Shown here one piece after another: positions 8,100 through 46,570 of a stretch of DNA of 50,254 bases. Both the position numbers and the translations under genes were made by a program. Origin of the DNA: Octopus sinensis. Its lineage: Eukaryota. The notes beneath the pieces are model-generated. The model was not told the origin of the DNA. It saw only the letters and a list, made by a program, of their open reading frames with translations, and did no database searches. The DNA is taken from positions 1-50,254 of the forward strand of contig NW_021835780.1 in the NCBI RefSeq assembly GCF_006345805.1, given 5' to 3'. Positions within the stretch are counted from its first letter, which is position 1, and every line of letters begins with the position of its first letter.

Positions 8100-8150
8100 C
8101 AATAACAACAACAATAATAATAATTATTATTATTATTGTTATTATTATTA

Positions 8151-8188
<38 letters not shown>

Positions 8189-8249
8189 GTTGTTATTATT
8201 TTTGTTGCTATTATTATTGTTGTTATTGTTATTGTTGCTATTGTTATTA

Positions 8250-9319
8250 TGGCTCACGAAGGGGAAAACCATCTTAATTCCCAAATCAAATGAAACAACA
8301 AAACCAGAAAACTACAGACCAATAACCTGCCTCCCTACTATGTTCAAGGCATTTACTGCAGTGATATCGCAAAGGCTGAACAAGCACCTGGACGAAAACA
8401 AACTGTTCCCAGAAGAGCAGAAAGGATGCCGCAAAGGCTCATATGGCTGTAAAGATCAACTAATGATAAAACGATGGCAAGAAAAGCCCCTTCATGGTAA
8501 ATACTGCACTAAACTAAACGCAAAAGAAATAGACAAAGAAAAATCCCAGCAATGGTTGAGAAGCTCAGGACTCAAAGCAGAAACAGAGGGATTTTTAATT
8601 GCAGCACAAGACCACAGCCTCCCCACCAGAAATTACCAAAAACATGTAATGAAAAGAAATATTACAAGTAACTGCAGAATATGTGGAGATGGACAAGAAA
8701 CAATAAATCATATTATCTCTAGCTGCCCAGTCCTGGCTAAGAAGGAATATATTCACAGACATGACAGAGTTGGAACCTACATACATTGGAAGCTATGCCA
8801 ACATTATGGAATAACAACAGAAAAAAGATGGTATAGGCACACACCAGAAAAGGTCACAGAAAACGAGAAAGCAACCATACTCTGGGATATGCCGATACAC
8901 ACAGATAGAGAATTAAGGCCAACAGACCAGATATAGTTGTCAGAGATCATGCTTTCTAATGATGTATCAATACCGGCAGATGACAACGTGTCTCTAAAAG
9001 AAATGGAGAAACTCTCAAAATACAAAGACCTGGAAATAGAGGTAACTAGAATGTGGAACCTGAAAACAGAAACAATTCCTATCATAGTAGGTGCATTAGG
9101 CATGATAAAAAATATTCAGACAAATACATAACAAAAACACCAGGACTTACAAACACATATAACATACAGAAAATTGCACTACTAGGCACTGCACACATCC
9201 TACGCAGAACACTTTCCATACAATAACCATCAGAGCATCACAACAAATCACAGCACATACCCAAGGCACACAGAGCTGCGCTCGGTAGTGAAGTGAAAGC
9301 ACGCTATAAAATAAAACTA

Positions 9320-9507: not shown

Positions 9508-9556
9508 TAACAACAATAATAATAATAATGATAATAACAACAACAATAATAATAAT

Positions 9557-10887
9557 GTGGCAGGGACTGTCTAACACAGCTCTTACACCACATTAAAGAT
9601 GTACTCAAAGCCTTGGGAACAGGTTCGAACTCTGACGTCATATACCTTGACTTCAGTAAAGCGTTCGACAGGGTAGACCATAACATCCTACTCTCAAAAT
9701 TGGCAAATGTTGGAATCCGTGGAAAAGTTCTACACTGGATTCAGTATTTCCTAGCGAATAGAACACAACATGTTGTAGTTGATGGAGTCCACTCAAACCC
9801 AGCAAAAGTCACCAGCGGTGTTCCCCAGGGAACTGTTTTGGGTCCGCTACTCTTCCTAATTTATGTAAACGACCTTTCCAGTGTCGTACATCACTGCAAA
9901 ATGAAAATATTCGCTGATGACACTAAGCTCCAGCAAATCGTCAATGAAGAAGCAGACCGAACTCAACTCCAGTCTGACCTATATGCTGTGAGTCAATGGG
10001 CAGACAGAAACAAAATGCAACTGAATGAGGAAAATTTGAGCTGATGCATTTTGGAAGAAATTCCTCACTAAAACAACCCACTCTCTTCCTTCAGGGGAAC
10101 CGCTCACAGCCTCTAACAATATCAGAGACCTGGGTGTAATTGTTGATGACGATCTCAGTTGGAGTGCACACATCAACAAGAAGGTCGATACAGCTCGTAG
10201 GATGAGTTCCTGGATCTTAAGAACTTTCCGGTCCAGAGAACAAGGTGTCATCATACCACTTTTTTCATCCTTTGTACGGCCACACCTTGAATACTGCTGC
10301 CCACTGTGGTCTCCTCACACAAGACAAAACATCTCCAGAATTGAGTCACCCCAGAGGGCTCTCACTAAACAAATTGAAGGCATGGCTGCTCTCGACTATT
10401 GGGATCGCCTTAAAGCCTTGAAACTTTACTCCCTCCAGCGTCGCCGTGAGCGGTATCATTTGTACGATGTGAAAATATACCGCCAACTTTGCCAAAACGA
10501 CCTAAACATTAGCTTAGGTTCATCCGAGACTTGGACCACGGGCTATACGTCCCCTGCCAATTCAAGATCACAACATACATGTACACTGCAACATAATTTC
10601 TTTTCCTCAACAGGGAGATCAAAGAGGAAAAGGATCCATCAACTTCAAACAGAGTCTGGATAGATTCCTTCAAAGAATACCAGATAAGCCACCCATAATT
10701 GGATACAAACTCACCCAACAAGAACTCACTACTTGAACAAACTGATACAACTCACCCAACAAGAACTCACTACTTGAACAAAACTTGACTTAAACAGGAT
10801 TCGAATAATCCTATCAGGTGGTGCTATTAAGTTAGACATGGCCTGGACTAATCTCTGGTCGAAACATATCTAAGTTTATCTAAGTTT
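9557..10887 (+). mobile_element. CR1-type LINE, 5'-truncated (RT domain to 3'UTR), frameshifted
   Basis: DVIYLDFSKAFDRVDH, SGVPQGTVLGPLLFLIYVND, FADDTK, VRPHLEYC..WSP, LYSLQRRRER; 3' stem-loop and ATCTAAGTTT x2 tail; (AAT)n on both sides. Confidence 0.9.
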
Positions 10888-25365: not shown

Positions 25366-25584
25366 GCACACAGGGGGCTAAACACAGAGGGAATACACTA
25401 GGACAGACAAAGGGATTAAGTCGATTACATTGATCCAAGTGTGTAACTGGTACTTATTTAATCGACCCCGAAAGGATGAAAGACAAAGTCGACCTCGGCG
25501 GAATGTGAACTCAGAACGTAACGGCAGAAGAAATACCGATAAATCTTTCGCCTGGCGTGCTAACGATTCTGCCAGCTCGCCGCC
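25366..25584 (-). mobile_element. SINE family A, full length, alternative tail
   Basis: Reverse complement GGCGGCGAGCTGGCAGAATCGTTAGCACGCC...CTTTCATCCTTTCGGGGTCG...TGTCTGTCCT..TGTGTTTAGCCCC. Confidence 0.9.
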
Positions 25585-25769
25585 ATATTTATGTTAAATA
25601 TACAAAATATACCGGACCGAGAAAGGCAGTATGCCAGTTTAAGTAATGGAGCGGTTCTAAAAGCCCTTCTAAGTAACATTAATTTATTTCTATTTATTTG
25701 AGATCTTAGATTTGGATGAAAGGACATGAAGCGCCTTCTTGAGGTGGAAGTAGCATTTTAGTTTCCCTC

Positions 25770-25890
25770 CATTTTACAATTTGGTAGCAGTTCTAATTTA
25801 TTATTTAATATCTTAACTAATCTCTCTTTAGGGCTCCATATGAAGTTAGATAGAGAAGTGAAGCTTTCTTTCTTTTATATTTAAAGGAAT
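25770..25890 (-). pseudogene. Short relic of a Penelope endonuclease C-terminus
   Basis: SFKYK/KESFTSLSNFIWSPKE..LNNKLELLPNCK resembles SF......T.LS.YIW.LK and LLNKR.EL...C. Confidence 0.45.
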
Positions 25891-25960
25891 ATATATAATA
25901 GAAATATTAAAATTACTAAGTCTCTCTAAAGGAGATTACGGCAGTGTTACTGGATATTAA

Positions 25961-26128
25961 TAGTTATCGCCATACTAATATGGTAGTCTATAAATATAGA
26001 CTAAAACTGTCGCTGATTAGCTCCAAGAGGCCATCGCCTCTAGCTAGCTATGCGATGGCCTTTGGAGCTAATCAGCGATAGCTTTAGTCTTATATTTATA
26101 GACTACCATATTAGTATGGCGATAACTA
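25961..26128. repeat. Fold-back with ~77-bp arms abutting (TA)n
   Basis: TAGTTATCGCCATACTAATATGG...GCCATCGC / GCGATGGC...CCATATTAGTATGGCGATAACTA. Confidence 0.9.
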
Positions 26129-26129
26129 G

Positions 26130-26180
<51 letters not shown>

Positions 26181-26254
26181 TATATATATATATATATATA
26201 TATATGTCTGTACATGTGTGCGGTGTTTCAATGTATAACATACACGCTCTGCTG

Positions 26255-27000
26255 TACTAGTTCACTTTCGCTGTTTACAGCAGTGCTCGAAAGGAAGGAG
26301 TGTAGCGCGTAATCGTCGCATTGGCCATGACAGAGAGTTATCATTGCGATACCTGCTCAGAGCCCTAGGCAAAATTGCAGAAAGTGTATGGGCAGGAGTG
26401 TATGAGCCGATCACAAATGTACGAATGGTTCAGCCGTTTCTAAAATAACAGAAAAAATGTCGATATTGACGAAAGTTTGGGGAGAACCGCGACTAGCAGA
26501 ACTTAGGAAAACATTGCAGATGTGCGTGAAGCTGTGAGGGGAATCGTCGAATTAATATCTGTGAGCTATCAGAGGATTGGCAGATTAGTTATGGTTCAGT
26601 TCAGTCCGTTATCACTAACGATTTGGGTATGAGATGCGTGTCTGCCAAGTTTGTGCCAAAACTGCTTTCAGCTGACCAAAATGACACCTCGGATCTCAGT
26701 TGTACAAGATCTCGTTCATAATGTCGAGAGCGATGGAAACTTTTTGAAAACTTTGCGTAGGCCCCTGAGCAGGTATCACCAAGCTTTTGGCAAAATTTGA
26801 TGTAAATTCTATACTCAACTTTCTCTGTTACAGTCAATGCGACGATCGCACGCCACATACCTTCCTTCCAATCACTGCTGTGAACAGAGGAAGTGAGCTA
26901 GAACGTTAAAACTTAGTGCGCATGCCAAGCAGCTTCACTCTGCGTGCTTTACCTTCGTTACTATCACAACAGTCCGGATACTTATCGATCAGTATACGTA
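26255..27000 (+). mobile_element. Mariner derivative: N-terminal transposase fragment plus an inverted second copy of the 5' end
   Basis: Plus strand AKLQKVYGQECMSRSQMYEWFSRF...GRTATSRT.ENIADVR..NRRI.I.ELSED..ISYGSVQSVITNDLGMR.VSAKFVPKLL; minus strand TEKVEYRIYIKFCQKLGDTCS; TIR-like TACG...CTGATCGATAAGTATCCGGACTG at the right end. Confidence 0.85.
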
Positions 27001-27062
27001 TACATGTACGTAAGCATGCAAATATATACAAGCATACATATTTAGTATATATACATGTATCC

Positions 27063-27093
<31 letters not shown>

Positions 27094-27199
27094 ATACACC
27101 GACACTCTCACATACATACATATATATTTTTTCATGTAATTACTTTTATATATAACTTCAATTAAAAACAAACGATATGTTTGTGCATATATAGTATAA

Positions 27200-27602
27200 C
27201 GTATATAAATATATGTTCTTATATATTTACACACATGTACAACCACTCTATATGTATATACATTCACATATACACAGATATATACATACATTCATACATG
27301 CATACATTCATAGATACATGCACGCATACATACATACAAACACACATACATACAAATATACATACATAAATTCATACGTACATACAAGCATACACACATT
27401 CTTACATACATACAAACATACATACATGCAAATATACATACATACATGCATTCATAATACATACCTACATATATTCATACATACATAGAAACATACATAC
27501 ATTCATATATAAATTCTTACATATATACTTTCATAAACAAACATACATGCACACACATACATGCACACACATATTTACATACACACATACATACACACAT
27601 AC

Positions 27603-27633
<31 letters not shown>

Positions 27634-27690
27634 CATACATACATACATACATACATACATACATACATACATACATACATACATACACAC
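27200..27690. repeat. (CATA)n-type microsatellite
   Basis: Direct reading. Confidence 0.95.
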
Positions 27691-28164
27691 ATTCATATCG
27701 TTTTTAATGTTTTCTTTTAAAGATTAAAGATTACTAATTCACCATTTTTATGTCGGTTTTGTTTCTCCCATTTTCACCGTTGATAATTTGTTTTGATATT
27801 TCTGCTTTTATTTTCTTGTTAGTTTTGCTGTATTTTGTTTTTCTTTCGTCTTCATGTTGAACAAATTATATTTTAAAGAACGTGAAATAATCACATGAGA
27901 AATTAGCAGATCTGCGAAATCGAATCATCGATAATTAAAGAAAGTTACAGGCGTCAAATTTTGAAGTCTTAATTCCGGTATATATTTTGAAAAGAAAAAA
28001 AATAATAAAGATAGAATAAGAGAGATGAATTTATTCAATATAGGAACCCCGTCTCGTCTTTTATATATTAATGTTAAGTGCAGGTTATTACTTTAATATT
28101 TATATATGCTTGCGAGTATGCACTTGTAAAAGTGGATGGGGGGGCTCCCAGAAAACCAGAGAAA

Positions 28165-28530
28165 GTCGAAATAAAACGTGTCTGCAACGCTTACGAAGCC
28201 ACATATTTTTCCACTCGTGAGAAATACCCACAATGTTTAAGAAATATGTGAGCCACCTAGATGTGTTTCAGTTGCGTTGCCTCACAGTCTTATTGGACAT
28301 TTTTTGGTCTACATACGTCCCTGGTTCTGAAGTGTTTTAGAAAGATGATACATCTAATGTTTATATATCATCTAATGTACATGCATACATCTAATGTACA
28401 TATATCACCACTTTAAAATAGACTGAACCGCTGATGAAAGAGGTAAAAATATTCTTGACTCACTATAGGAGAACAACTGATTTACTATAAACTATCCAAA
28501 GGTAAAAAACGTACAATACAAGCCTATGAG
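28165..28530 (+). mobile_element. Highly decayed RTE-clade LINE, post-RT region
   Basis: KKYVSHLDVFQLRCLTVLLDIFWSTYVPGSEVF and EQLIYYKLSKGKKRT resemble RTE L..FH.RCLR.IL.I.W...V.N.EVL and KQLLYGEL..GKR. Confidence 0.6.
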
Positions 28531-28884
28531 GCAATCAATCCTCGCTCGAGCACGTGGTTACCTACCAGTACGCATCATTAATAGGCTTAAAATACCCCAA
28601 ATCTGACATTCTCGATGGTTACTCATAGGGTAAATTTTCGTACCCCTCTTATATGTATTAGGTTTTTAACACAGCACGTCCATAAGAGATGTTCTCTAAC
28701 CTCAAGTATCTCAACAAATGACCTATTGATAGTGTTTATATATTAATTATGACACATAGATTGCTATTTAAGTGTAAATATAAGGTATATAAGTGTAAAT
28801 ATATCTACAAAAATATATATATTATATTTACAGACTACATATATGTATGCACGTAAATTATATACACACATATATATACATATT

Positions 28885-28929
<45 letters not shown>

Positions 28930-29117
28930 ATATATAATATATTATTTATATATCTATATATATATATAATAGATATATATATACATTATGTATATGTATT
29001 TATATATGTGTATATATAAGGATATAAATAGGCAGATAAATAGAAACATACTTAGGTAGGTAGGAAGCTAGACAGAAAGATAGATATGGAGAGAGAGAAA
29101 GACAGAGAAAGCCGATC

Positions 29118-29153
<36 letters not shown>

Positions 29154-29372
29154 ATATATATATACATATATATATATACATACACACACACACGTACATA
29201 CACACACACATACACATACACATACACACGTATACGTATATATAATTAATAATTCAAAGAAAACAGAATATACATAGAATAAACAATTTTTAATCATAGT
29301 TCTGTCAGTTAATAAGTTCTTACATTTTTCCGCCTACGTTACGTTTTCCTAATACAGTTCTATAAAACGCAC

Positions 29373-29421
<49 letters not shown>

Positions 29422-29608
29422 CATGCACAACGAATTGCTTGTATGAGTGAAAAGAGGAATGCAAAGTAACTAACTAACTGTGAATGTGATTGTATGAATG
29501 AGAACTTCTGAGAAAAAGATGGTAAAGCAGACATGAGCAGATAAAGTGAGAGGGAAGTAGAAGGAAAGAGGGAGAGAGATGTGAATATAGAGGGAGATGA
29601 GAGAGAGG

Positions 29609-29650
<42 letters not shown>

Positions 29651-29665
29651 AAGAGAGAGAGAGAG

Positions 29666-29705
<40 letters not shown>

Positions 29706-30656
29706 AGAGATATGCAGAAAGGGCAAAGTTCAGTAATATATTTTCAGACGTGAACAGATGAAATATCGATATAAGGGTTGAAACGAACAACCCTTCTCTC
29801 ATCTTGAACCAGATTGAATAAAAACTAACGCGTAAAAAGACTATTAACAATGTGGACTGTATGAAAGGTAATTTATCATATACCCGCTTTCAATGTCAGA
29901 GTTCCACTGGGTATGGTTAGAATTTTATGTTGTGTTTTTAATCCTATACTTGTTTATCTTTTTGTATTTCATTTTGTATTTTCAATTTTTCTTCCAGCAG
30001 ACTTAGTCTCTTCATTATATTTTTGCCATTTATTCCGTGATCAAATCGTCCTCGTCATGGCCACTCATGTGATTTAAATTACTCGATGATGTTATGCTGC
30101 GTTCTGTACTGTTGTCATGGACTGTGATTGTATTAATGTTGTGATCGTTGTTGTTATCTTCATTGTTGTTGTGCTTGTTGCTGTTGTTCTTTAACCCCAG
30201 ATCAGTCTTGATTAAGTACAACTTTGATGACCATCCTCGCCCACACATATTTTATATCGAGGACACGTTATCGAATACGGCCTTCCTTTTGAAGACTGTA
30301 AAAAAAAAATTTCAATATTGTGCAACTTTGATTCAATTTTGACCCAGAGGATTTATAACATAAGGGGTTCTGATCGGGATCATCCCAATTATCTTTCTGG
30401 CATAATGTACCTACGATTGCATTATCCAATGTGCCCTTTCTATTTTCAAGATTGTAGATTCTGTTTTGAGAGAATTTTGACTGCTATTTCTTGCCGGTCA
30501 AACCATGTGTACAGATCCTCATGTTGGCATGTTGTTGTTGCAGCTGCTAATGTCTTTGTTGCTACTGCTATTGTTAATCATTGGTCAGTGAATTTGCCAG
30601 AAAAACTGTATGGAAACAAGACGATGATCTGTGCCTCTAGTATACACACACACACA

Positions 30657-30749
<93 letters not shown>

Positions 30750-30753
30750 ATAT

Positions 30754-31348
30754 AATTAGTCAAAGGGCATATTAAATATGTCTACCTGCTGGAAAAAGCA
30801 GTCAAAACTCTCATTTAAATCGCCAAAATACATTGATAATAACTACAGAAAACAAACGCCCGAAAGCAAACGGGTTAAGGCAATCTCTCAGCACCCATTC
30901 ATGCATTTGAACTCATGTGGGCTGCTTTCTGGACTGGCATTACAGCCTTAACCTCCGCAGCACGCCTTACCATGAGGGAGAGCTGAGGAGGGTGAGGGTG
31001 TAATGCCAGTCCAGAAACCAGTCCACGTGAGTCCAAATAGATGAATGTATGCTGAGTGATTGTCTTAGCCAGTCTGCTTTTGGACAGTTGCTTTCAGTAA
31101 TTATTATCAATGTATTTTGGCGATTTAAATGAGAGTTTTGACTGTTATTTCCAGCAGCTAGATATAATTAGTATGCCCTTTAATTAATTTTAATCCTTCA
31201 GCTATTTAATGCTTTTGGCGGGGCCTGCAATCGCCAATATTATTGATTCTGTTATTATCACTTTTTTAATTGATACACTAGATAATAATAGAGTAAATGA
31301 TATCTTCGCAAATAGTTTCCGTGAATTATTCGCTCCATATTGGAATTA
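30754..31348. mobile_element. Fold-back copy of the hammerhead-bearing element also found at 46114-46570
   Basis: ~205-bp imperfect inverted arms 30754-30960/30983-31190; right arm continues to ~31348; (TA)n and (CA)n flanks. Confidence 0.85.
30978..31029 (+). ncRNA. Decayed type I hammerhead motif
   Basis: CTGAGGA (30983-30989)...GCCAGTCCA-GAAA-CCAG-TC-CACGTG; a more decayed mirror copy lies on the minus strand at ~30914-30966. Confidence 0.55.
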
Positions 31349-31370
31349 CACACACACACACACCACACAC

Positions 31371-31422
<52 letters not shown>

Positions 31423-31442
31423 CATATATATATATATAATAT

Positions 31443-31475
<33 letters not shown>

Positions 31476-32757
31476 GGCGTAGGAGTGGTTGTGTGGTAAG
31501 TAGCTTGCTTACGAACTACATAGAAAGATATGGGTAAACTTCCACTCTTATTACTCTTATCAGTTGTCATCAGTAGATCAATGCTAAATTACTAATCTAC
31601 GGAGAGTAGATTTGGCTGATTGCTTTGAGCATAAGACAGCCATTCCAATACATCATGTCCTGTTATCGCTGTGCTGTTATCTATTATTGTTCTATTAGAA
31701 TTAGCAAGCTGCACTTTGGAGCAACCTCTAAGAAACAGCGCGTCTGAACTCTCCAGCATAGCAAGGTGTGTACAGCTGGTCTCTGCATTGAACCTGCGTA
31801 CCCTAACCCTGAATGGGCAAGATGCGTACCTTAACTCAGAAATCACAAGGTGTGTATCCCGATCCTGAAATAGTAAACTTTGTTCTACCCCTTTTAATCA
31901 ACAAGGGAGATTGATTCGTTTTCTCGCTTCTAGTATTCTTTGATGATAAACTGTTATACTAAGGATACACGTTGCTGATGAAATTCTTAAACTGGATAGC
32001 AACTAGTCGGGATAATCTTCCTTAATCTGTCCTTAAGTATTTAAGGGCAATGTGTTTACATTTGTTTATTACTTGTCTCGGTCATTTGATTTCGGTCATG
32101 CTGGAGCAATGCCTTGAAGAATTTTAGTCATTTTATGTATTTATTTATTTTATTTCTAAGCCTGATACTTATTCTGTCAATCAATTTTGCCGAACCGCTA
32201 ACTTAAGGGAATGTAAAAAACACCAGTATCCATTATCAAGCGGTAGTTACGGACAAACACAGACACACACACATTCACAAGCACACACATATACACGCAT
32301 ACACACACACATATATATACATATATATTGGAAGGGATTCTTTCAGTTTCCGTTCTACCAAATCCACTCACAAGGCTTTTGTCAGCTGAGGTTTTGGTAG
32401 AAGACATGTGCCCAAAGTGCGCGCGCTGAGACTGAACCCGGAAGCATGTGGTTGGGAAGGAAATTTCTGACCATGCAGCTACAGCTATGCCTAGCAAACA
32501 TATATATATATATGCGTAGGAGTGGCTGTGTGGTAAGTAGCTTGCTTACGAATTACATAGAAAGATGTGGTTAAACTTCCACTCTTATTACTCTTATCAG
32601 TTGTCATCAGTAGATCAATGTTAAATTACTAATCTACGGATAGTAGATTTGGCTGAATGCTTTGAGCATAAGACAGCCATTTCAATACATCATGTCCTGT
32701 TATCGCTATGGTGTTATCTATTATTATTCTATTTGAATTAGCAAGCTGCACTTTGGA
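31476..32757 (+). repeat. Pair of ~245-bp direct repeats (31476-31720, 32513-32757), each starting with a truncated SINE B head
   Basis: Identical fusion GCTTGCTTACGAA.TACATAGAAAGAT in both; homology ends at GCTGCACTTTGGA. Confidence 0.9.
32064..32492 (-). mobile_element. SINE family B, older diverged copy
   Basis: Colinear reverse complement of the family head, body and tail. Confidence 0.8.
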
Positions 32758-32805
32758 AAATTTTTTTCCTCTGTCTTCCCTTCTCGGGATCTTTCCTTCT
32801 CCTTT

Positions 32806-32840
32806 GTTTCCGACGAAGAGCTCCGCTCGAAACGTTAAAC
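32806..32840 (+). ncRNA. Minimal type I hammerhead (core CCGACGA) within a ~180-bp element 32760-32938 ending at (TA)n
   Basis: GTTT-CCGACGA-A-GAGC-TCC-GCTC-GAAA-CG-T-T-AAAC; helix I GTTT/AAAC; palindromic ACGT helix III. Confidence 0.75.
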
Positions 32841-33081
32841 CCTCCTTCCCTTCTTTCCTGAGCGTCAAATAATACTTTAATTGTTTCACGTCCTCGCGTT
32901 GCTGTGTTTTTTTTCTGTGTTTTCTTGTTTGGATTAACTATATATATATATATATATGCACAACATTTTCAAATCACTTATCTTTATCTTCAAAAAATAA
33001 TGATAAAGTGGCCAGCGAACATAACTTAATAGGTAATATATATATATATAAGATATATATATATATATTATATATATATAC

Positions 33082-33140
<59 letters not shown>

Positions 33141-33341
33141 TATTATATATATATATACATACATACATATATATTAGTATATATGTATTAGTATTTTTGG
33201 TACATTCTCTGTGCATGTTTACATTTAGCGAGAGATGTATGGCTTTAGAGATTTTTTACTCTCCTTTCTAGAAACAGGTGCGTATTGTATCTTGATTTTT
33301 AATATATATATATATATATATAGATATAGATATATAGATAT

Positions 33342-33505
33342 AGTTGAAATTCATAGGAAAACAAAAGACGAATGTAGGTGTATGAACAACAGCAAGTATA
33401 TTAGTTTGACACTCGGGAAAAATGAAAAAGTCTTTTACATTTCAATCCCACGCTCTTTAACAGAAAGGAATAAGAGAAAATAAACAGAGAGAAAATGAAA
33501 AAAGT
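33342..33505 (-). mobile_element. Related short element with a decayed minimal hammerhead (33432-33467)
   Basis: Minus strand CTTT-CTGTTAA-A-GAGC-GTGG-GATT-GAAA-TG-T-A-AAAG; downstream TTCCCGAGTGTCAAACTAATA resembles TTCCTGAGCGTCAAATAATA at 32856-32875. Confidence 0.6.
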
Positions 33506-33578
33506 CATCTAGATTTCAGCGCTCCAGTATAACGAATACATATATATATATGATATAAACTTATGTACATAATCATTT

Positions 33579-33669
<91 letters not shown>

Positions 33670-33921
33670 CATCAGCAATAACATGAACGCATATCTATCG
33701 TCCTATGTGGAATACCAGGCATGCTTGAAAATACATTTGGCGAGTCTTACATCCTAAGCGACACATAGCCATTAATGAACACATTCAAACAAATCTTATC
33801 TCTGTTAAAAATAAACATTTGGGCAGATATGATAACATGGCAAATTATGGTCAATACCAGATCAACGCAATGGAATATTTGGTAATTTAAAGAGTAGAGA
33901 TTAAGCATTAAAGATATACTC

Positions 33922-34018
<97 letters not shown>

Positions 34019-34231
34019 CACTTATACACACTCAGACGAGGAATAGAGCTTGTAAGAACAAAATATTCGTTGCAAAAGGAAATTAGATGTCAACATTTAA
34101 GTCAACAAAGACTCCAAATGCATATTCGAGAAGACAAAAGGGAAACGGAATCGCTCTGTTGAGAGGAGCGTTATTAGTTTGTCCTCCATTTCCATCACTC
34201 TCCCTCCCTCCTTCCCTCTCTCTCTCCCTCC

Positions 34232-34262
<31 letters not shown>

Positions 34263-34386
34263 ACTCTCTCTCTCTCTCTCTCTCTCTCGCTTTCTCAATC
34301 TCTCTCTCTACATTTGGCTAGTGTTTCCTTATGTTTTCTACATTTTTTGTTTAAAAATATTAGAAATACTAATGTTAAAAAATCAT

Positions 34387-34576
34387 TTACTCTTTTACTT
34401 GTTTCAGTCATTTTTGACTGCGGCCATGCTGGAGCACCGCCTTTAATCGAGCAAATCGACCCCAGAGCTTATTCTTTGCAAGCCTAGTACTTATTTTATC
34501 GGGCTCTTTTGCCGAACTGCTAAGTTACAGGGACGTAAACACAACAGCATCGATTGCCAAGCGATGTTGGGTGACA
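34387..34576 (-). mobile_element. SINE family B, 3' half
   Basis: Reverse complement of the family tail. Confidence 0.85.
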
Positions 34577-34583
34577 TATATAT

Positions 34584-34617
<34 letters not shown>

Positions 34618-36020
34618 ATATATAGGGGTGGGAGATTTCACAAAAAAACAAAGCTGCTCCGTTTTGCTTCTGGTTAAACTACAAAGTAAGCAAACAGCAG
34701 TAAGTAGCGGGTGCACTTTAAAATCGTGGATGGTTTCTGTATTTTGTACTTTATTCCTCTTATGGATAAATAACTTGAGAGGCTTCGCTATGATACTTGT
34801 CAATATGATGTGCTCTAAATGAGAAGCAACTTTATTATTATTGCTCCAAGAGTCTGAAAGATTGCCTGCTCTATCAAAATCATTTTCCATTTCTTTTCAT
34901 AAGCAGTAAATACAGATAAAACTGTGTTGTTTTACAGATTGGAGCAGTGATAATACAGTATTGTGACTATAGTCACAAATGTCACCTGACTAGTCACGTT
35001 CACTAACACGTTCCACAGACGTGCAGTCTCCTCTCACTGATTTTTATCACTACCTCTACAGTGACCTTTTTTTCTTCTTCTTTGCAGAGCTGGCTGCTCT
35101 CCTTTCAGATCATCCTGGTTCAGTCGCCTCTTCTCTTCTCGAAGCTCATATTGTATCCATTCGAATTCACCCCACCCCACCCCTGCTAACCCCTACCCTC
35201 AATCTTTAATTATCTGAACGCTAGCCTATTAAGAATTCAAAGAAAACCCACGTTTGTCTTTCAAGCATCAATTTGCAAGTATTCACGAGGAATACTCACC
35301 ACACCAATCTCACAGGCTTCATAGAAGTTGCAGTGTCCATTGATAAAACCTTGTCCTCCAAATCAAGCCAATGTTCTTATTCGTGATGCGAACCATCGAC
35401 CCCTTACACCAGCAGTCCAGTCTGACAACCAATCAACTCACCCATCTGCGACGTTTAAAACCATGATAATCAAAATGATTATCGTATCATAAGATATCTG
35501 ATGTGTAAGCTGACGCAACAGGCAATATTTCGTTCTTTGTTGTTATTAATGTTACAGCCATTGATGGTAATGTACCTGCTGCCGTTGTTGTAGAGAGTCT
35601 TGTTGTTTATGTTTTTGTTTTGAATTTGACAATATTGAACCAAAATATCAGTAGTTCGTTGGGTTTAGTCAGTCATTATTAATTGAAACGAAAAAAAAAA
35701 ATAGCATAGAGCAATACCATATTTATCGATTATCGATTATCAATGGTAGAGTGGGAGAAATGAATGCAATTTTTTTAAGTTCTATCAGTGCGACTGCATC
35801 ACAAATAGAGATAATAACAGAACTTATAGAATTGTAGAACCAAACTTTTCCAAAAGAGTTAAAATCTGTTTGGTATGGACGTATGAGTGTTTATGTGTAT
35901 ATGATTATGAATACATGTGCGTGTGTGTCTGCTTATATATGTATGTAGATATGTAGATATATATGTATGTATGACTACACATATACATATACATGGAAAT
36001 GAATTATGTATTTTTGTATA

Positions 36021-36059
<39 letters not shown>

Positions 36060-36466
36060 TTATATATGTATGTATATATATATAAATATTATACCGATAT
36101 TTATAAATGTATATGTATATGCCTTATTTCAAACAAACGCTGCCAACACTGCGGAATTTTATTGCCAATTACAACGTATTCTAAATTTTTTAAATGATTT
36201 ATGTTTTTCATGCTTCCAGAATCGATAAAATATGTACCAGCCATGTACTGGAGTTATTTTAATCGATAACTTCTCTGAAGGTTTGTGGTACTCTGTCTTT
36301 CTTAGAAAACCTTTCAACGTCGAAACAGCTGGAACTGTTCACATGCAGTATACGTTGTTGTTTTCTTTTTAAAGATATTAAGATTGAGAATTAGTTAGCT
36401 GATATATTTAGCAGGTCTACAACGATGTAAAGATTCTATTACTATGTTCGTAAATAGGACTCTTAA

Positions 36467-39400
36467 CCTATTAAAGCCAAAAATTAAAAGAAGTTAAATT
36501 TTCTATAAAATTTTAATGTGGTAATTTGGATACTGCATTTAAATTACTCTTTGATTGATTGATTGATTCTAGTTTCAGCTTATGAGCTGTGGCCATGCTG
36601 GGGCACCACCATTTGCTGTTTATTACAAAAACAAAATTGAAGTTTTCACATTTTTTAAACGTTTGATAGATCATTGGAGTTTTCTGGTTCGTAAGAGTTT
36701 TGGTATAAAGAAAATGCTCTTTTACATTTCTTTATTGAAAAACTTACACTAGAAATCGTTAATATTAACGGTCATTATGACAGAAAATAACTTAATTTAT
36801 TATTACTGATAGTAAGCTACAAAACATGTATCCGGATGAAGTCCGACATTACATTTAATACATACAAACTTGGCACATTTTCCACATACTGCACACTTTC
36901 TCTGCGTATCATTTTTATTGACAAAGTGGGTTTTACCCTCAAATCTGTTTGAAGAACTTGTTTCATTGTTTTAGGACGGACTCTTCGCTTTGGTTCTAAA
37001 TCTTTTGCAGGAAGTAGTATCATAACATTTTCTCTGGTGAATTCCGAGAGAGAAATTTTCTTTTCAGTTTGATAGTACAAGGTCTATAGATTCACTATGC
37101 CACCATTGAGACAAAAGCGAAACAACGACCAATACCACTTTCTCTATCTAATTCTATTTCTGTAATGTTCCCTCATTTTATGAGAAATATCTATTCCCTC
37201 CCCATTCGTCTGTTGTATAACTTAGCGATATTGGGTTGTGGAACAGTAACCTATTTTCTTTCGGTTTTCTTCCATCGCTTACAACTTCCAACTTCAAGCA
37301 AAGCTTTTTCTTTTCAATTATTTGGAACTAAAGTAACTTGGGTAAAGATGTCTTGCCACCATAAAATGGCAGTCCTGCTTTAGGACGAATATTGCTGTAA
37401 TTTAGCCCCAGGAGACATCGTCTCCAGCTGGCTATACGACACGATCTGTGTCCTTACATTTTCGAACAATTACAGCAACATTAGTCCTAAACCAGGACTG
37501 CCATGTTATGTTGGCAACCAATCTTTACTCCAAAGTACTGTTGCTGAATATATCTCGTTGTGAGATTTACAATAGTAACCTTCTAAAGTAACTTGGTTAT
37601 TATTGTTCCACCTAACAAGAGTAACTCCATTTGTTCGATCTTCAGCTGCCCAATATACACCTCACTGTGCATTACTTCGGTTCTTTAAAAGTGTCGGCTC
37701 AATTCGATCTTTCCTGAGACTTCCAACAAAGACACTCGTGCTTAACAGAGACTGTATCAAGGATAAAGAAGTGAAATAATTGTCCATAAGATTCAAGCAC
37801 CCTGACATACAAAACCTAAATAATGTATTTCTGTTACTGAAGATCCTGCCACTTGTCCCCTGCACCAGTACACACATAAAACTTAATCAAATACTACCCT
37901 TCTGTTGTTGTTGATACCAAAACTTAAATCCATAACGAATAGGCTTTTCTCTTGTAAACTGCTTCATTCCATGGTACCCGTAGTAAGGCTCCAGTGCTTC
38001 ATCAAGAGAGAAAGTTTTTATCTATCGGTAGAATGAACACACAGAATTTCCCAGTTAGATGGTCTAGGAGAGGCCTAATTATATTAAGATTGCCACAAAG
38101 ATCGATTGTCATGTTATCGTTGAAGTGTATATATTGGTGAATCTTTTCAAATTTATTTCTACTCATAGAATGGCTTACTAGAAAGTTATTTGCATCTAGA
38201 TGAGTCTCCTAATACATTTTTAAACGGAGCTTTCTCATACCCTAACAATAAAAGGACTCCAAAATATTTGTAAAGATTTTTCAGCAGACGAAGTAAATTA
38301 CGTACCTCCTTTTTCGAATGCTTATTCAACTGTTTCTTTGTATATGTGTTCCATCATTTCTTCAGTAAAGCATAATTTGAAGATGTCAAAAAGCTTACTT
38401 TCATTTCCCTTTATGTTCTTTATAATTCCAGGTTTTAATTCGTTTACCTAGTACTCAGCTGTTTTGGAAGTGTTTTTAATGCTTTAGAAGCCCACGTACA
38501 CGAAGTTTTTGCTGCACTTCCACACTTTTTTCACGGAAAACTATCAGAAAGATTTCTGTGCTAATCTTGATTTTGCAGTCAAATTTCTGCGCTTTATGAA
38601 AGTACACCATGACCAATGTCTCTAAGATTTGCTGGTGCCTCTTCGCAATCATTGCCTGCATCATCTTTATCTGAATCTAGGCCATCATTTGGGGCACGCA
38701 AAACAAATCCAAGTTCTTGTGCATCCTCAATTTCAGCCGCCAATAATTCGGAATGCTCACTTGCTTCGATGACGTTCAATAGTTCATCTGCGTCCCTTTC
38801 GACATCAAGATTTCTCTTCGGCATCATTGTTTTGAAAACGAAATGAAACACTTATAAACTTTTCAGAGCTAAATGTAAAAAATATATTTATTTTGCAATT
38901 CTTAATAGACCCTTAAATATATTTACTAGCAAATACAGCAAATAAAGTTTTTAAAAAAAGACAAAACAATAAGTACAATTGTGCGTCAAATATGAATTCT
39001 ATAATATTCTGAAATGAACGCTTCGATTCGCAGCGTATGATTTATCATACTCAGGGGAAAAAACACTTAATAAATTCAACTTACGATGCAATACATGGAT
39101 AATTTATCCTGTTCATGCGATTGTATTAGCATTATCAGGCGTTTGAGAATAAAATTATTTCTGTATACTTAATAAATCAAAACATTCAAAATATTTTTGT
39201 TTGAAATATCATTTCAAGTTAAGACATAAGTTGCAGAATAAAAAATATTAAAGTTTTGGGATTCTATATCGCTACAAAAATATTGAGCATAAATGTGCTG
39301 TCTATAAAGCTCACTTGACCAGATCAAAATGACTGCTGAAAGAAAACTTCACAACAAATTATTAAATGAAATTATAAGGCCAAATCTGCCAAATGTTGCT

Positions 39401-43551: not shown

Positions 43552-43975
43552 AAGTAGCTTGCTTCCCAACCATATGGTTCTGGGTAACTTGGGCAAGTGT
43601 CTTCTACTATAGCGTCGACCCGACCAAAGCCTTGTGAGTTGATTTGGTAGGCGGAAACCCAGATTGGGTGTTGTGAGTGTTTATTGAGCGAAAACACCTA
43701 AAAGCTCCACGAGGCTCCTGTAGTGGGTGGTGGCGAACCCAACTGTATTCTTTCACCACAACTTTCTCTCACTCCTTCTTCCTGTTTCTGTTGTACCTGT
43801 ATTTCAAAGGGCCAGCCTTCTCACACTCTGTTTCACGCTGAATCTTCCCGAGAACTACGTTAAGGATGCGCATGTCTGTGGAGTGCTCAGCCAATTGCAC
43901 GTTAATTTCAAGAGCAGGCTGGTTCGTTGATCGTTTCAACTGGAACCTTTGTCGTCGTAATTGACGGAGTGCCAC
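43552..43975 (+). mobile_element. Chimeric SINE: family B 5' part joined to family C body and tail
   Basis: Family B sequence to GGTAGGCGGAAAC (~43658), then CCAGATTGGGTGTTGTGAGTGTTTATTGAGCGAAAACACC of family C. Confidence 0.8.
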
Positions 43976-45107: not shown

Positions 45108-45497
45108 GGAAGGAAGGAAGCACTCCGTCGGTAACGACGACGAGAGTTCCGATTGATCCGATCAACGGAACAGCCTGCTCGTGAAATTAACATGTAAGTG
45201 GCTGAGCACTCCACAGACACGTGTACCCTTAACGTAGTTCTCGGGGATATTCAGCGTGACACAGAGAGTGACAAGGCCGGCCCCTTGAAATACAGGTACA
45301 ACAGAAACAGGAAGTAAGAGTGAGAGAAAGTTGTGGTGAAAGAGTACAGCAGGGATCACCACCATCCCTGCCGGAGCCTTGTGAAGCTTTAGGTGTTTTC
45401 GCTCAATAAACACTCACAACGCCCGGTCTGGGAATCGAAACCGCGATCCTACGACCGCGAGTCCGCTGCCCTAACCACTGGGCCATTGCGCCTTCAC
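45108..45497 (-). mobile_element. SINE family C, full length, 11-bp TSD
   Basis: Head GGCGCAATGGCCCAGTGGTTAGGGCAGCGG...GGTTTCGATTCCC; (CTTC)n tail; ATCTAAGGGTA at 45097-45107 and 45498-45508. Confidence 0.92.
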
Positions 45498-46113: not shown

Positions 46114-46570
46114 AAATTAGTCAAAGGACATACTAGGTATGTCTACCTGTTGGAAATAACAGTCAAAACTCTCATTTAAATCGCCAAAAGACACTGATAA
46201 TAACTACAGAAATCAACCGTCCGAAGGCAAACGGTTTAGGACAATCTCTCCGCATACATTCAAGTATTAGGACTCATGAGGACCGGTTTCTGGACTGGCA
46301 TTACAGCCTCTCCTTCCTCAGCACGCGTTACTATGATGGAGAGCTCCAACCCATCATGTTGAAATCTGCGTGGCATCTGATTCATTTTGCACCAAATCAT
46401 GGCAGCCATCAGTGTGAAAATAATTTTAATACGGAGCAAACAAATAATGAGAAAATATTTGCGAAGATATCATTGACTCTATTACTATGAGAATCAATAA
46501 TGTAGGCGATTGCAGGACCCCCGGAAAAGCTTTAAATAACTGAAGGATTAAAATAAATCAAAGGACATCA
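46114..46570 (-). mobile_element. ~437-nt hammerhead-bearing monomer with short terminal redundancy (retrozyme-like or Penelope pLTR-like)
   Basis: TCAAAGGACAT at 46121 and 46558; hammerhead at 46275-46327; homologous to 30754-31348. Confidence 0.75.
46275..46327 (-). ncRNA. Type I hammerhead motif with ACCGGT palindromic helix III
   Basis: CGCGTG-CTGAGGA-A-GGA-GA-GGC-TGTAAT-GCC-AG-TCC-A-GAAA-CCGG-T-C-CTCATG. Confidence 0.65.

Follow-up and report, generated by a model that had tools for sequence, protein, structure and literature searches.

Two fold-back insertions in an Octopus sinensis contig as probable truncated retrozyme copies with a conserved RNA hairpin domain

The question raised by this locus is why two insertions of Octopus sinensis DNA, separated by 11.6 kb of unrelated sequence, carry related sets of hairpins. 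Both lie in a stretch of 50,254 nucleotides, referred to here as the window (NCBI RefSeq assembly GCF_006345805.1, contig NW_021835780.1, positions 1 to 50,254 of the forward strand). Our analysis indicates with high confidence, as far as the identity of the elements is concerned, that the two fold-backs represent truncated copies, joined head to head, of non-coding repeats from two dispersed families, A and B, which are Penelope-dependent retrozymes of the non-LTR (long terminal repeat) type. The explanation as a whole, in which doubly truncated retrozyme copies contain a domain where copying starts, appears probable to us.

The original prediction, made from the letters alone, placed one hairpin motif at 26018-26050 and its counterpart at 37403-37434, and both strings are indeed found there, with three compensated base pairs, a fixed internal loop and a fixed apical loop at both sites, and with a GCCA..TGGY hairpin followed by an AGTC..GACT hairpin in both copies. 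A joint pattern for the A and B motifs matches twice in the window and never in 100 shuffles. Both sites are also fold-backs, as claimed, with an arm identity of ~90% over 186 columns in insertion A and ~71% over 220 columns in insertion B. The extent assigned to them was correct for the fold-back and not for the limits of the insertions, a one-sided tail of ~55-60 nt reaching beyond the inverted repeat in each copy (25898-~25957 in A and ~37530-37582 in B). Outside the insertions lie target duplications, read on the plus strand, of 13 bp in A (25885-25897 and 26128-26140) and 14 bp in B (37328-37341 and 37583-37596). The left duplication of A is TA-rich, its 13-mer occurring in the window only at 25885 and 26128, and the right one continues into (TA)n, while the first four letters of the right duplication of B are common to the unit end. 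Both window copies are arranged head to head, with one end at an outer site, S1, and the other at an inner site, S2, and both are truncated before the hammerhead is reached. Two points of the original prediction have to be revised: the motif was first read on the strand opposite to that which carries the hammerhead in full units, and the setting, described as unrecognised, corresponds to the published Penelope-type layout of an inverted copy plus a tail.

The identity of the elements follows from the full units of these families elsewhere in the genome. DNA searches of the 2.7-Gb assembly, with the best 40 candidates scored per search, gave first-look candidates of at least ~1,100-2,600 per family, which are lower bounds and not copy numbers. 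The tandem units are 362 nt long in A, 358 nt in B and 352 nt in a further family, E, and are 97-98% alike in A and 85-89% alike in B; within longer copies the tail leads through a short linker to the next unit. Their GC content is 0.36-0.44, and the longest ATG-initiated frames in A, B and E units are 20, 28 and 56 amino acids (aa), so that the units are non-coding; a remnant of an open reading frame (ORF) beginning at the hammerhead was considered and rejected. A type I hammerhead motif lies in every unit, ~80 nt upstream of the hairpin first noted, here called M. The hammerhead core in family A is UUGAUAA in 33 of 47 pattern matches, 35 of which have the helix III of the family while the remainder look like chance matches; the core is CUGAUGA in B (12/13), with counts of 15/18 in D and 25/26 in E, and helix III is palindromic. 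A U3-A8 core is present in families A and F. Whole units are predicted to fold into an elongated rod whose two ends are formed by the hammerhead and by the hairpin domain. Altogether seven families with this domain were recognised, A, B, C, D, E, F and H, the five beyond A and B having been found in the flanks of fetched loci. Most copies contain one to two units and lie dispersed, frequently in a head-to-head arrangement. Four sets of contigs guessed to be RNA cover family A, and three of them join unit end to unit start, a joint that tandem DNA copies would give equally and that was not used as evidence; among the records holding the repeat sequences none is listed as RNA. Five family A copies (L054, L059, L061, L072 and L081) consist of exactly one unit plus 11-13 nt and both start and end at S2, which might reflect a single passage round a circle or a joint formed within the TA-rich sequence of S2. 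A separate family, G, shows the same fold-back-plus-tail layout with a hammerhead motif (core CUGAGGA, one at window 30978), has at least ~1,330 candidates, and occurs in the window at 30751-31282, 46114-46382 and 46491-46568; its 3' domain is unmatched by the covariance model of the hairpin domain.

The hairpins belong to a domain of ~160 nt that is common to the seven families. On the hammerhead strand its order is hairpin H0, hairpin M, a helix P enclosing hairpins H2 and H3 and a small hairpin at S2, and then the tail hairpin H4. Hairpin M is invariant in its internal loop (AGCU/UGG) and in its apical GAU(G), and H3 in GCCA/UGGC. Helix P, absent from the original prediction, is a long-range helix (~60 nt) that has its 3' strand in the tail and closes a multi-way junction; it encloses the inner end site S2, and S1 lies after H4. 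With each family represented by its majority letters, the 28 positions compared in six families give 163 paired cells out of 168, a count that leaves aside H2, the S2 hairpin and H4, the last with the family F row out of register, and that takes family C from a single copy. Thirteen of the 28 positions vary and ten show at least two Watson-Crick types, three of these lying in helix P, which thus covaries at 3 of its 7 pairs. Between A and B alone there are five double and three single changes (permutation P 8e-4, for helices chosen because they pair). The alignment test used 20 of the 96 copies, leaving out an A row and an E row that were false tail calls; in it 92.8% of cells are paired and the covariation score exceeds all 500 shuffles when relatedness is ignored. 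Representative A, B and D copies score ~0.5 pairwise in global alignment. RNAalifold gives helix P from a sequence-only alignment of the 20 copies, and single-copy folds of A and F do not have it in this register. Family H offers an out-of-sample check, as it was absent from the covariance model, which was run on the fetched loci, yet was found by it. Among the 16 of its 24 copies that could be parsed, AGCU is present in 15, UGG in 14 and GAUG in 12, the outer M pair is changed from G-C to A-U in all 16, and the H0 stem also differs by compensated pairs.

The original prediction that a family of retroelements has a conserved, structured RNA at its terminus is borne out, with covariation that holds in further families and no match in Rfam. 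The Rfam comparison that it called for returned no family matching the domain: over the window there were only simple-repeat matches of miRNA type below the cut-off (the top one mir-2788, E 0.38, 24.6 of 62 bits), and on a dimer of the E unit nothing fell on the hairpin domain at E<=10. As to its suggestion of a recognition signal for a reverse transcriptase (RT), the position of the domain at the two copy ends fits, and the role itself is our reading of that position.

In insertion A the arm that ends at S1, with hairpin M, the junction and the tail, occupies 25898-26051 with its RNA sense on the minus strand (114 bits). Hairpin M is at 26018-26050 on the minus strand, and the predicted multi-way junction spans 25939-26012 on the same strand, helix P pairing 26007-26012 with 25939-25944 around H2 (25985-26002), H3 (25969-25984) and S2 (~25955-25961). 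The inverted arm, which ends at S2 and has no tail, lies on the plus strand at 26052-26127. In insertion B the arm ending at S2 comprises H0, M, H2 and H3 at 37342-37467 with RNA sense on the minus strand (91 bits), including M at 37403-37434 and, upstream of it, H0 at 37438-37452, both on the minus strand. The arm ending at S1 lies on the plus strand at 37468-37582 (82 bits) and contains helix P (37473-37479 with 37540-37546), H2 (37484-37498), H3 (37499-37516), the S2 hairpin (37523-37535) and the tail hairpin H4 (37552-37566).

What suggests a link between this domain and copying is the distribution of copy ends. The 3' ends of the sense strand cluster at two sites ~55-60 nt apart, the inner S2 inside the junction and the outer S1 past H4, which are ~175 nt and ~220-238 nt, respectively, from the hammerhead site. 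In family A, 35 and 30 of 78 ends fall at the two sites (65/78 in two 6-nt bins), compared with 46 and 40 of 154 in B and 15 and 30 of 85 in E, and in these three mapped families both sites keep their position relative to the domain. Queries without a fold-back yielded 75 distinct loci. Of these, 30 have a single orientation, 10 have an end that could not be assigned, and the other 35 are head-to-head copies in which each end was assigned. Of the latter, 32 pair S1 with S2, two pair S1 with S1 and one pairs S2 with S2 (binomial p 4e-7, or 7e-8 given an S1 end). Non-simple flanking repeats of 8-14 nt occur at 26 of 56 B loci compared with 4 of 300 random pairs, and families A and E are mostly inserted in (TA)n. 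The inner junctions are scattered over the unit, mostly with overlaps of 2-5 nt, and the arms reach up to 794 nt, are often longer than one unit and run through the hammerhead site. Because the arms are often longer than one unit and the inner junctions scatter, we infer that the template is a multimer or a circle. The insertions display the features of Penelope-like insertions, namely an inverted 5'-truncated copy, a tail on one side only, and either target duplications that vary in length or a (TA)n target.

We propose the following mechanism. The unit would be transcribed as a multimer or circle, and the RT+GIY-YIG protein of an autonomous Penelope-like element (PLE) would nick both target strands ~8-14 bp apart. 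One target 3' end would prime at S1 and the other at S2, and the two cDNAs would stop at variable lengths and join head to head through a few shared bases. Priming at S1 and S2 with head-to-head joining is proposed as the reason for the fold-back, the one-sided tail and the target duplication. That the two nicked strands prime at different sites is likely, and, judging from its position and conservation, the ~160-nt domain probably docks the borrowed Penelope-type RT and sets its two start sites. In L1 twin priming, two target strands prime on the RNA and give rise to an inversion and a target duplication. Unlike in L1, the inner start here is fixed, and the two arms cover overlapping parts of the RNA, with the S1 arm continuing beyond S2, so that a second template or a second unit would be needed. 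Twin priming on a single RNA, with the outer arm stopping at S2, was rejected on the scatter of the inner junctions. A broader and more tentative proposal, to which we give somewhat less than even credence, is that the covarying domain shared by the seven diverged families is a template-recognition and initiation element for Penelope-type (telomerase-related) RTs, and that an RT dimer uses the two start sites asymmetrically, one for each nicked strand. If true, this asymmetry would explain the long-standing signature of an inverted repeat plus tail in these elements, and the parasites would have kept the domain although no autonomous element sampled carries it.

Elements of this class, with their inverted layout and tail, have already been published, and the following comparisons refer to the available portions of the papers cited. 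Metazoan non-LTR retrozymes are described as non-coding tandem units of 170-400 nt (350-390 bp in mussels) with a type I hammerhead, a GC content below 45% and a self-paired predicted fold, which co-occur with autonomous PLEs (PMC7229834; bioRxiv 10.64898/2026.07.22.740005). The octopus families resemble them in unit length, tandem layout, lack of coding capacity, type I hammerhead motif, GC content, self-paired predicted fold and co-occurrence with autonomous PLEs, and differ in that circles and cleavage have been demonstrated there while the present families are known from sequence, and in that the copies here are mainly one to two units long and dispersed, frequently head to head. The portions of these two accounts available to us give neither a conserved non-hammerhead domain nor a mapping of copy ends, and the term 'inverted' does not occur in PMC7229834. 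Insertions of endonuclease-bearing PLEs consist of an inverted 5'-truncated copy with a tail mostly on one end only, a hammerhead and a (TA)n bias (PMC8557442), all of which recur here; the present elements differ in having no RT-endonuclease ORF and a tail of ~55-60 instead of 30-40 nt, and in that the S1/S2 pairing was counted (32/35). With Poseidon_Ac in vitro, both target strands are extended, two internal RT starts flank the tail and a dimer is predicted (PMC11167929). The octopus elements likewise have two presumed starts downstream of the hammerhead with the tail between them and an inner start in a small stem-loop, which is AC-rich in family B. The likeness concerns the described layout; the region in Poseidon_Ac lies within the first 172 nt of the ORF of a single element, whereas the domain here is non-coding, lies farther from the hammerhead site and is backed by covariation across families. 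Minimal PLE hammerheads have a short helix I, a palindromic helix III and a U3-A8 variant, with motifs on opposite strands 100-700 bp apart (PMC4209133); the short helix I, palindromic helix III, U3-A8 core (in A and F) and placing of motifs on opposite strands at such distances are shared, while the two window copies lack the hammerhead and the hairpin domain is separate from it. Full-text literature that included few subscription papers yielded no description of the hairpin domain, no account of retrozymes in cephalopods and no end asymmetry established by counting. Repbase or Dfam may already list the families as repeats.

Several observations weigh against the explanation given above. Two of the five measures of the alignment test, those of pair type, do not exceed the shuffles (50/500 and 497/500), the test ignores the relatedness of the copies, the tail hairpin is paired in only 74% of cells, and folding z-scores together with G-U versus A-C counts (3 vs 2) leave the strand undecided. 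The S1 and S2 windows were set after the histogram, and two of the three queries held the tail; extra end peaks are seen in B (29/154 at 120-131 and 14 at 348) and in E (21/85 at ~120), which may be alignment artefacts. The tail is longer than the published 30-40 nt. As for the hammerhead, Rfam Hammerhead_1 (RF00163) matches the E unit at E 7e-5 with 28.4 bits, below the cut-off of 34, 12 loci that contain A and B units gave no hammerhead match at E<=0.001, and helix II of the B hammerhead pairs poorly in the sequence, so that B may not cleave. Finally, the domain was found at ORF-linked ends in none of 70 GIY-YIG loci, the model matches there being separate short insertions.

This last result bears on the alternative that survives best, although we regard it as unlikely, namely that the units are solo or tandem pseudo-LTRs of autonomous Penelope-like families and that the domain is the 3' start signal of such an element itself, with the same mechanism. 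Retrozymes are reported to derive from pseudo-LTRs in the available part of one account (bioRxiv 10.64898/2026.07.22.740005), and most PLE candidates in the genome are unscored, the best 150 of 5,029 and the best 150 of 8,019 having been scored. In the loci that we read, however, the tails of A, B, E, F and H lead through the linker to the next hammerhead and never to an ORF, and the motif is missing from the termini of three autonomous families that were well sampled, as well as from those of several older ones. An ORF-linked domain was found neither through the GIY-YIG search, ten longer regions or a second PLE protein nor through a search with Hammerhead_1, in which 74 of ~266,000 candidates were scored; likewise, no RT+GIY-YIG ORF linked to the repeats was found, the units having no ORF and the candidates being scored in part. 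Intact RT+GIY-YIG ORFs of 775-781 aa are present in the genome, and one autonomous family of 780 aa has the same hammerhead core and helix III as family A. The loci L145 and L147-L150 carry intact ORFs of this type of 780-781 aa and represent a young PLE family, with a U3-A8 hammerhead ~60 nt from the 3' end in L145 and related loci. Another, divergent and abundant PLE family with a C-terminal GIY-YIG (L194-L223; 8,019 candidates) has a long AC-rich 3' region and, by eye only, a hammerhead-like core near its end. A short repeat family (L264 and L267-L270, at 1501-1548) has hammerheads above the Rfam cut-off, with no RT frame seen beside it.

It is less likely again that the fold, while real, serves the life of the RNA, such as circle stability, folding of the hammerhead or a host-protein or promoter signal, and that the ends are set by local sequence or small hairpins. 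The rod with hammerhead and domain at opposite ends is as described for retrozyme circles in the available text of PMC7229834, H0 and M sit 40-100 nt upstream of S2, and family G has a like layout with a different 3' domain. Against this, helix P requires the tail and encloses S2, and both end sites have a constant placement relative to the domain in the three mapped families. Far less probable is the idea of DNA-level fold-back elements, or elements like miniature inverted-repeat transposable elements (MITEs), with template switching homogenising their hairpins, in which case the covariation would not reflect selected RNA structure. In its favour are the tendency of the elements to invert, the nearly equal folding of the two strands and the likeness of the arms to terminal inverted repeats in some copies; yet the ends are asymmetric, an inverted outer arm is missing in 30 of 75 loci, the centre and the length of the target duplication vary, the hammerhead motif is retained, helix P spans ~60 nt with its three covarying pairs, and the unpaired loops are invariant in seven families. 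The symmetric inverted termini, fixed ends and fixed-length duplication of a MITE or foldback DNA transposon were not seen. The further suggestion of the original prediction that hairpin M or the junction might be a ribozyme of a new kind is hardly credible, for although the unpaired M bases (AGCU/UGG, GAU) are invariant, Rfam has no match and the B hammerhead looks weak, each family already has an ordinary type I hammerhead motif, the inner copy boundaries scatter without a pile-up at M, and neither a pseudoknot nor a known ribozyme core was seen.

How the RT of PLEs recognises its template, and what causes inverted insertions with a one-sided tail, are stated to be open questions in the available part of PMC8557442 and have been answered only in part in vitro (PMC11167929, also in part available). 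The mobilisation of retrozymes by PLEs has so far been argued from co-occurrence and sequence likeness. What the octopus families offer is a small RNA whose fold is backed by covariation, together with two start sites that have been mapped and a rule, established by counting, of one end each; with intact candidate enzymes of 780 aa in the same genome the model of template recognition and two-strand priming is directly testable. Since the element class is known, a specialist would find these results useful rather than astonishing.

The remainder of the window contains other repeats. Insertion B interrupts a decayed DNA-transposase gene on the minus strand (36806-38851), which we take to be piggyBac-like; one of four open stretches scanned around B matches PF13843 DDE_Tnp_1_7 (E 2e-5), and the peptide QVTL is duplicated, with one copy on each side of the insertion. 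To the right of insertion A, 26200-26990 presumably represents a decayed remnant similar to a mariner-type transposase. Open frames at 8124-8936 and 9556-10663, among (AAT)n tracts, are assumed to be fragments of two non-LTR reverse transcriptases. A repeat resembling a short interspersed nuclear element (SINE) at 25374-25585 is presumably a common octopus SINE, and a 248-nt repeat forms an inverted pair at 43725-43972 and 45120-45367, 86% complementary and 1,147 nt apart.

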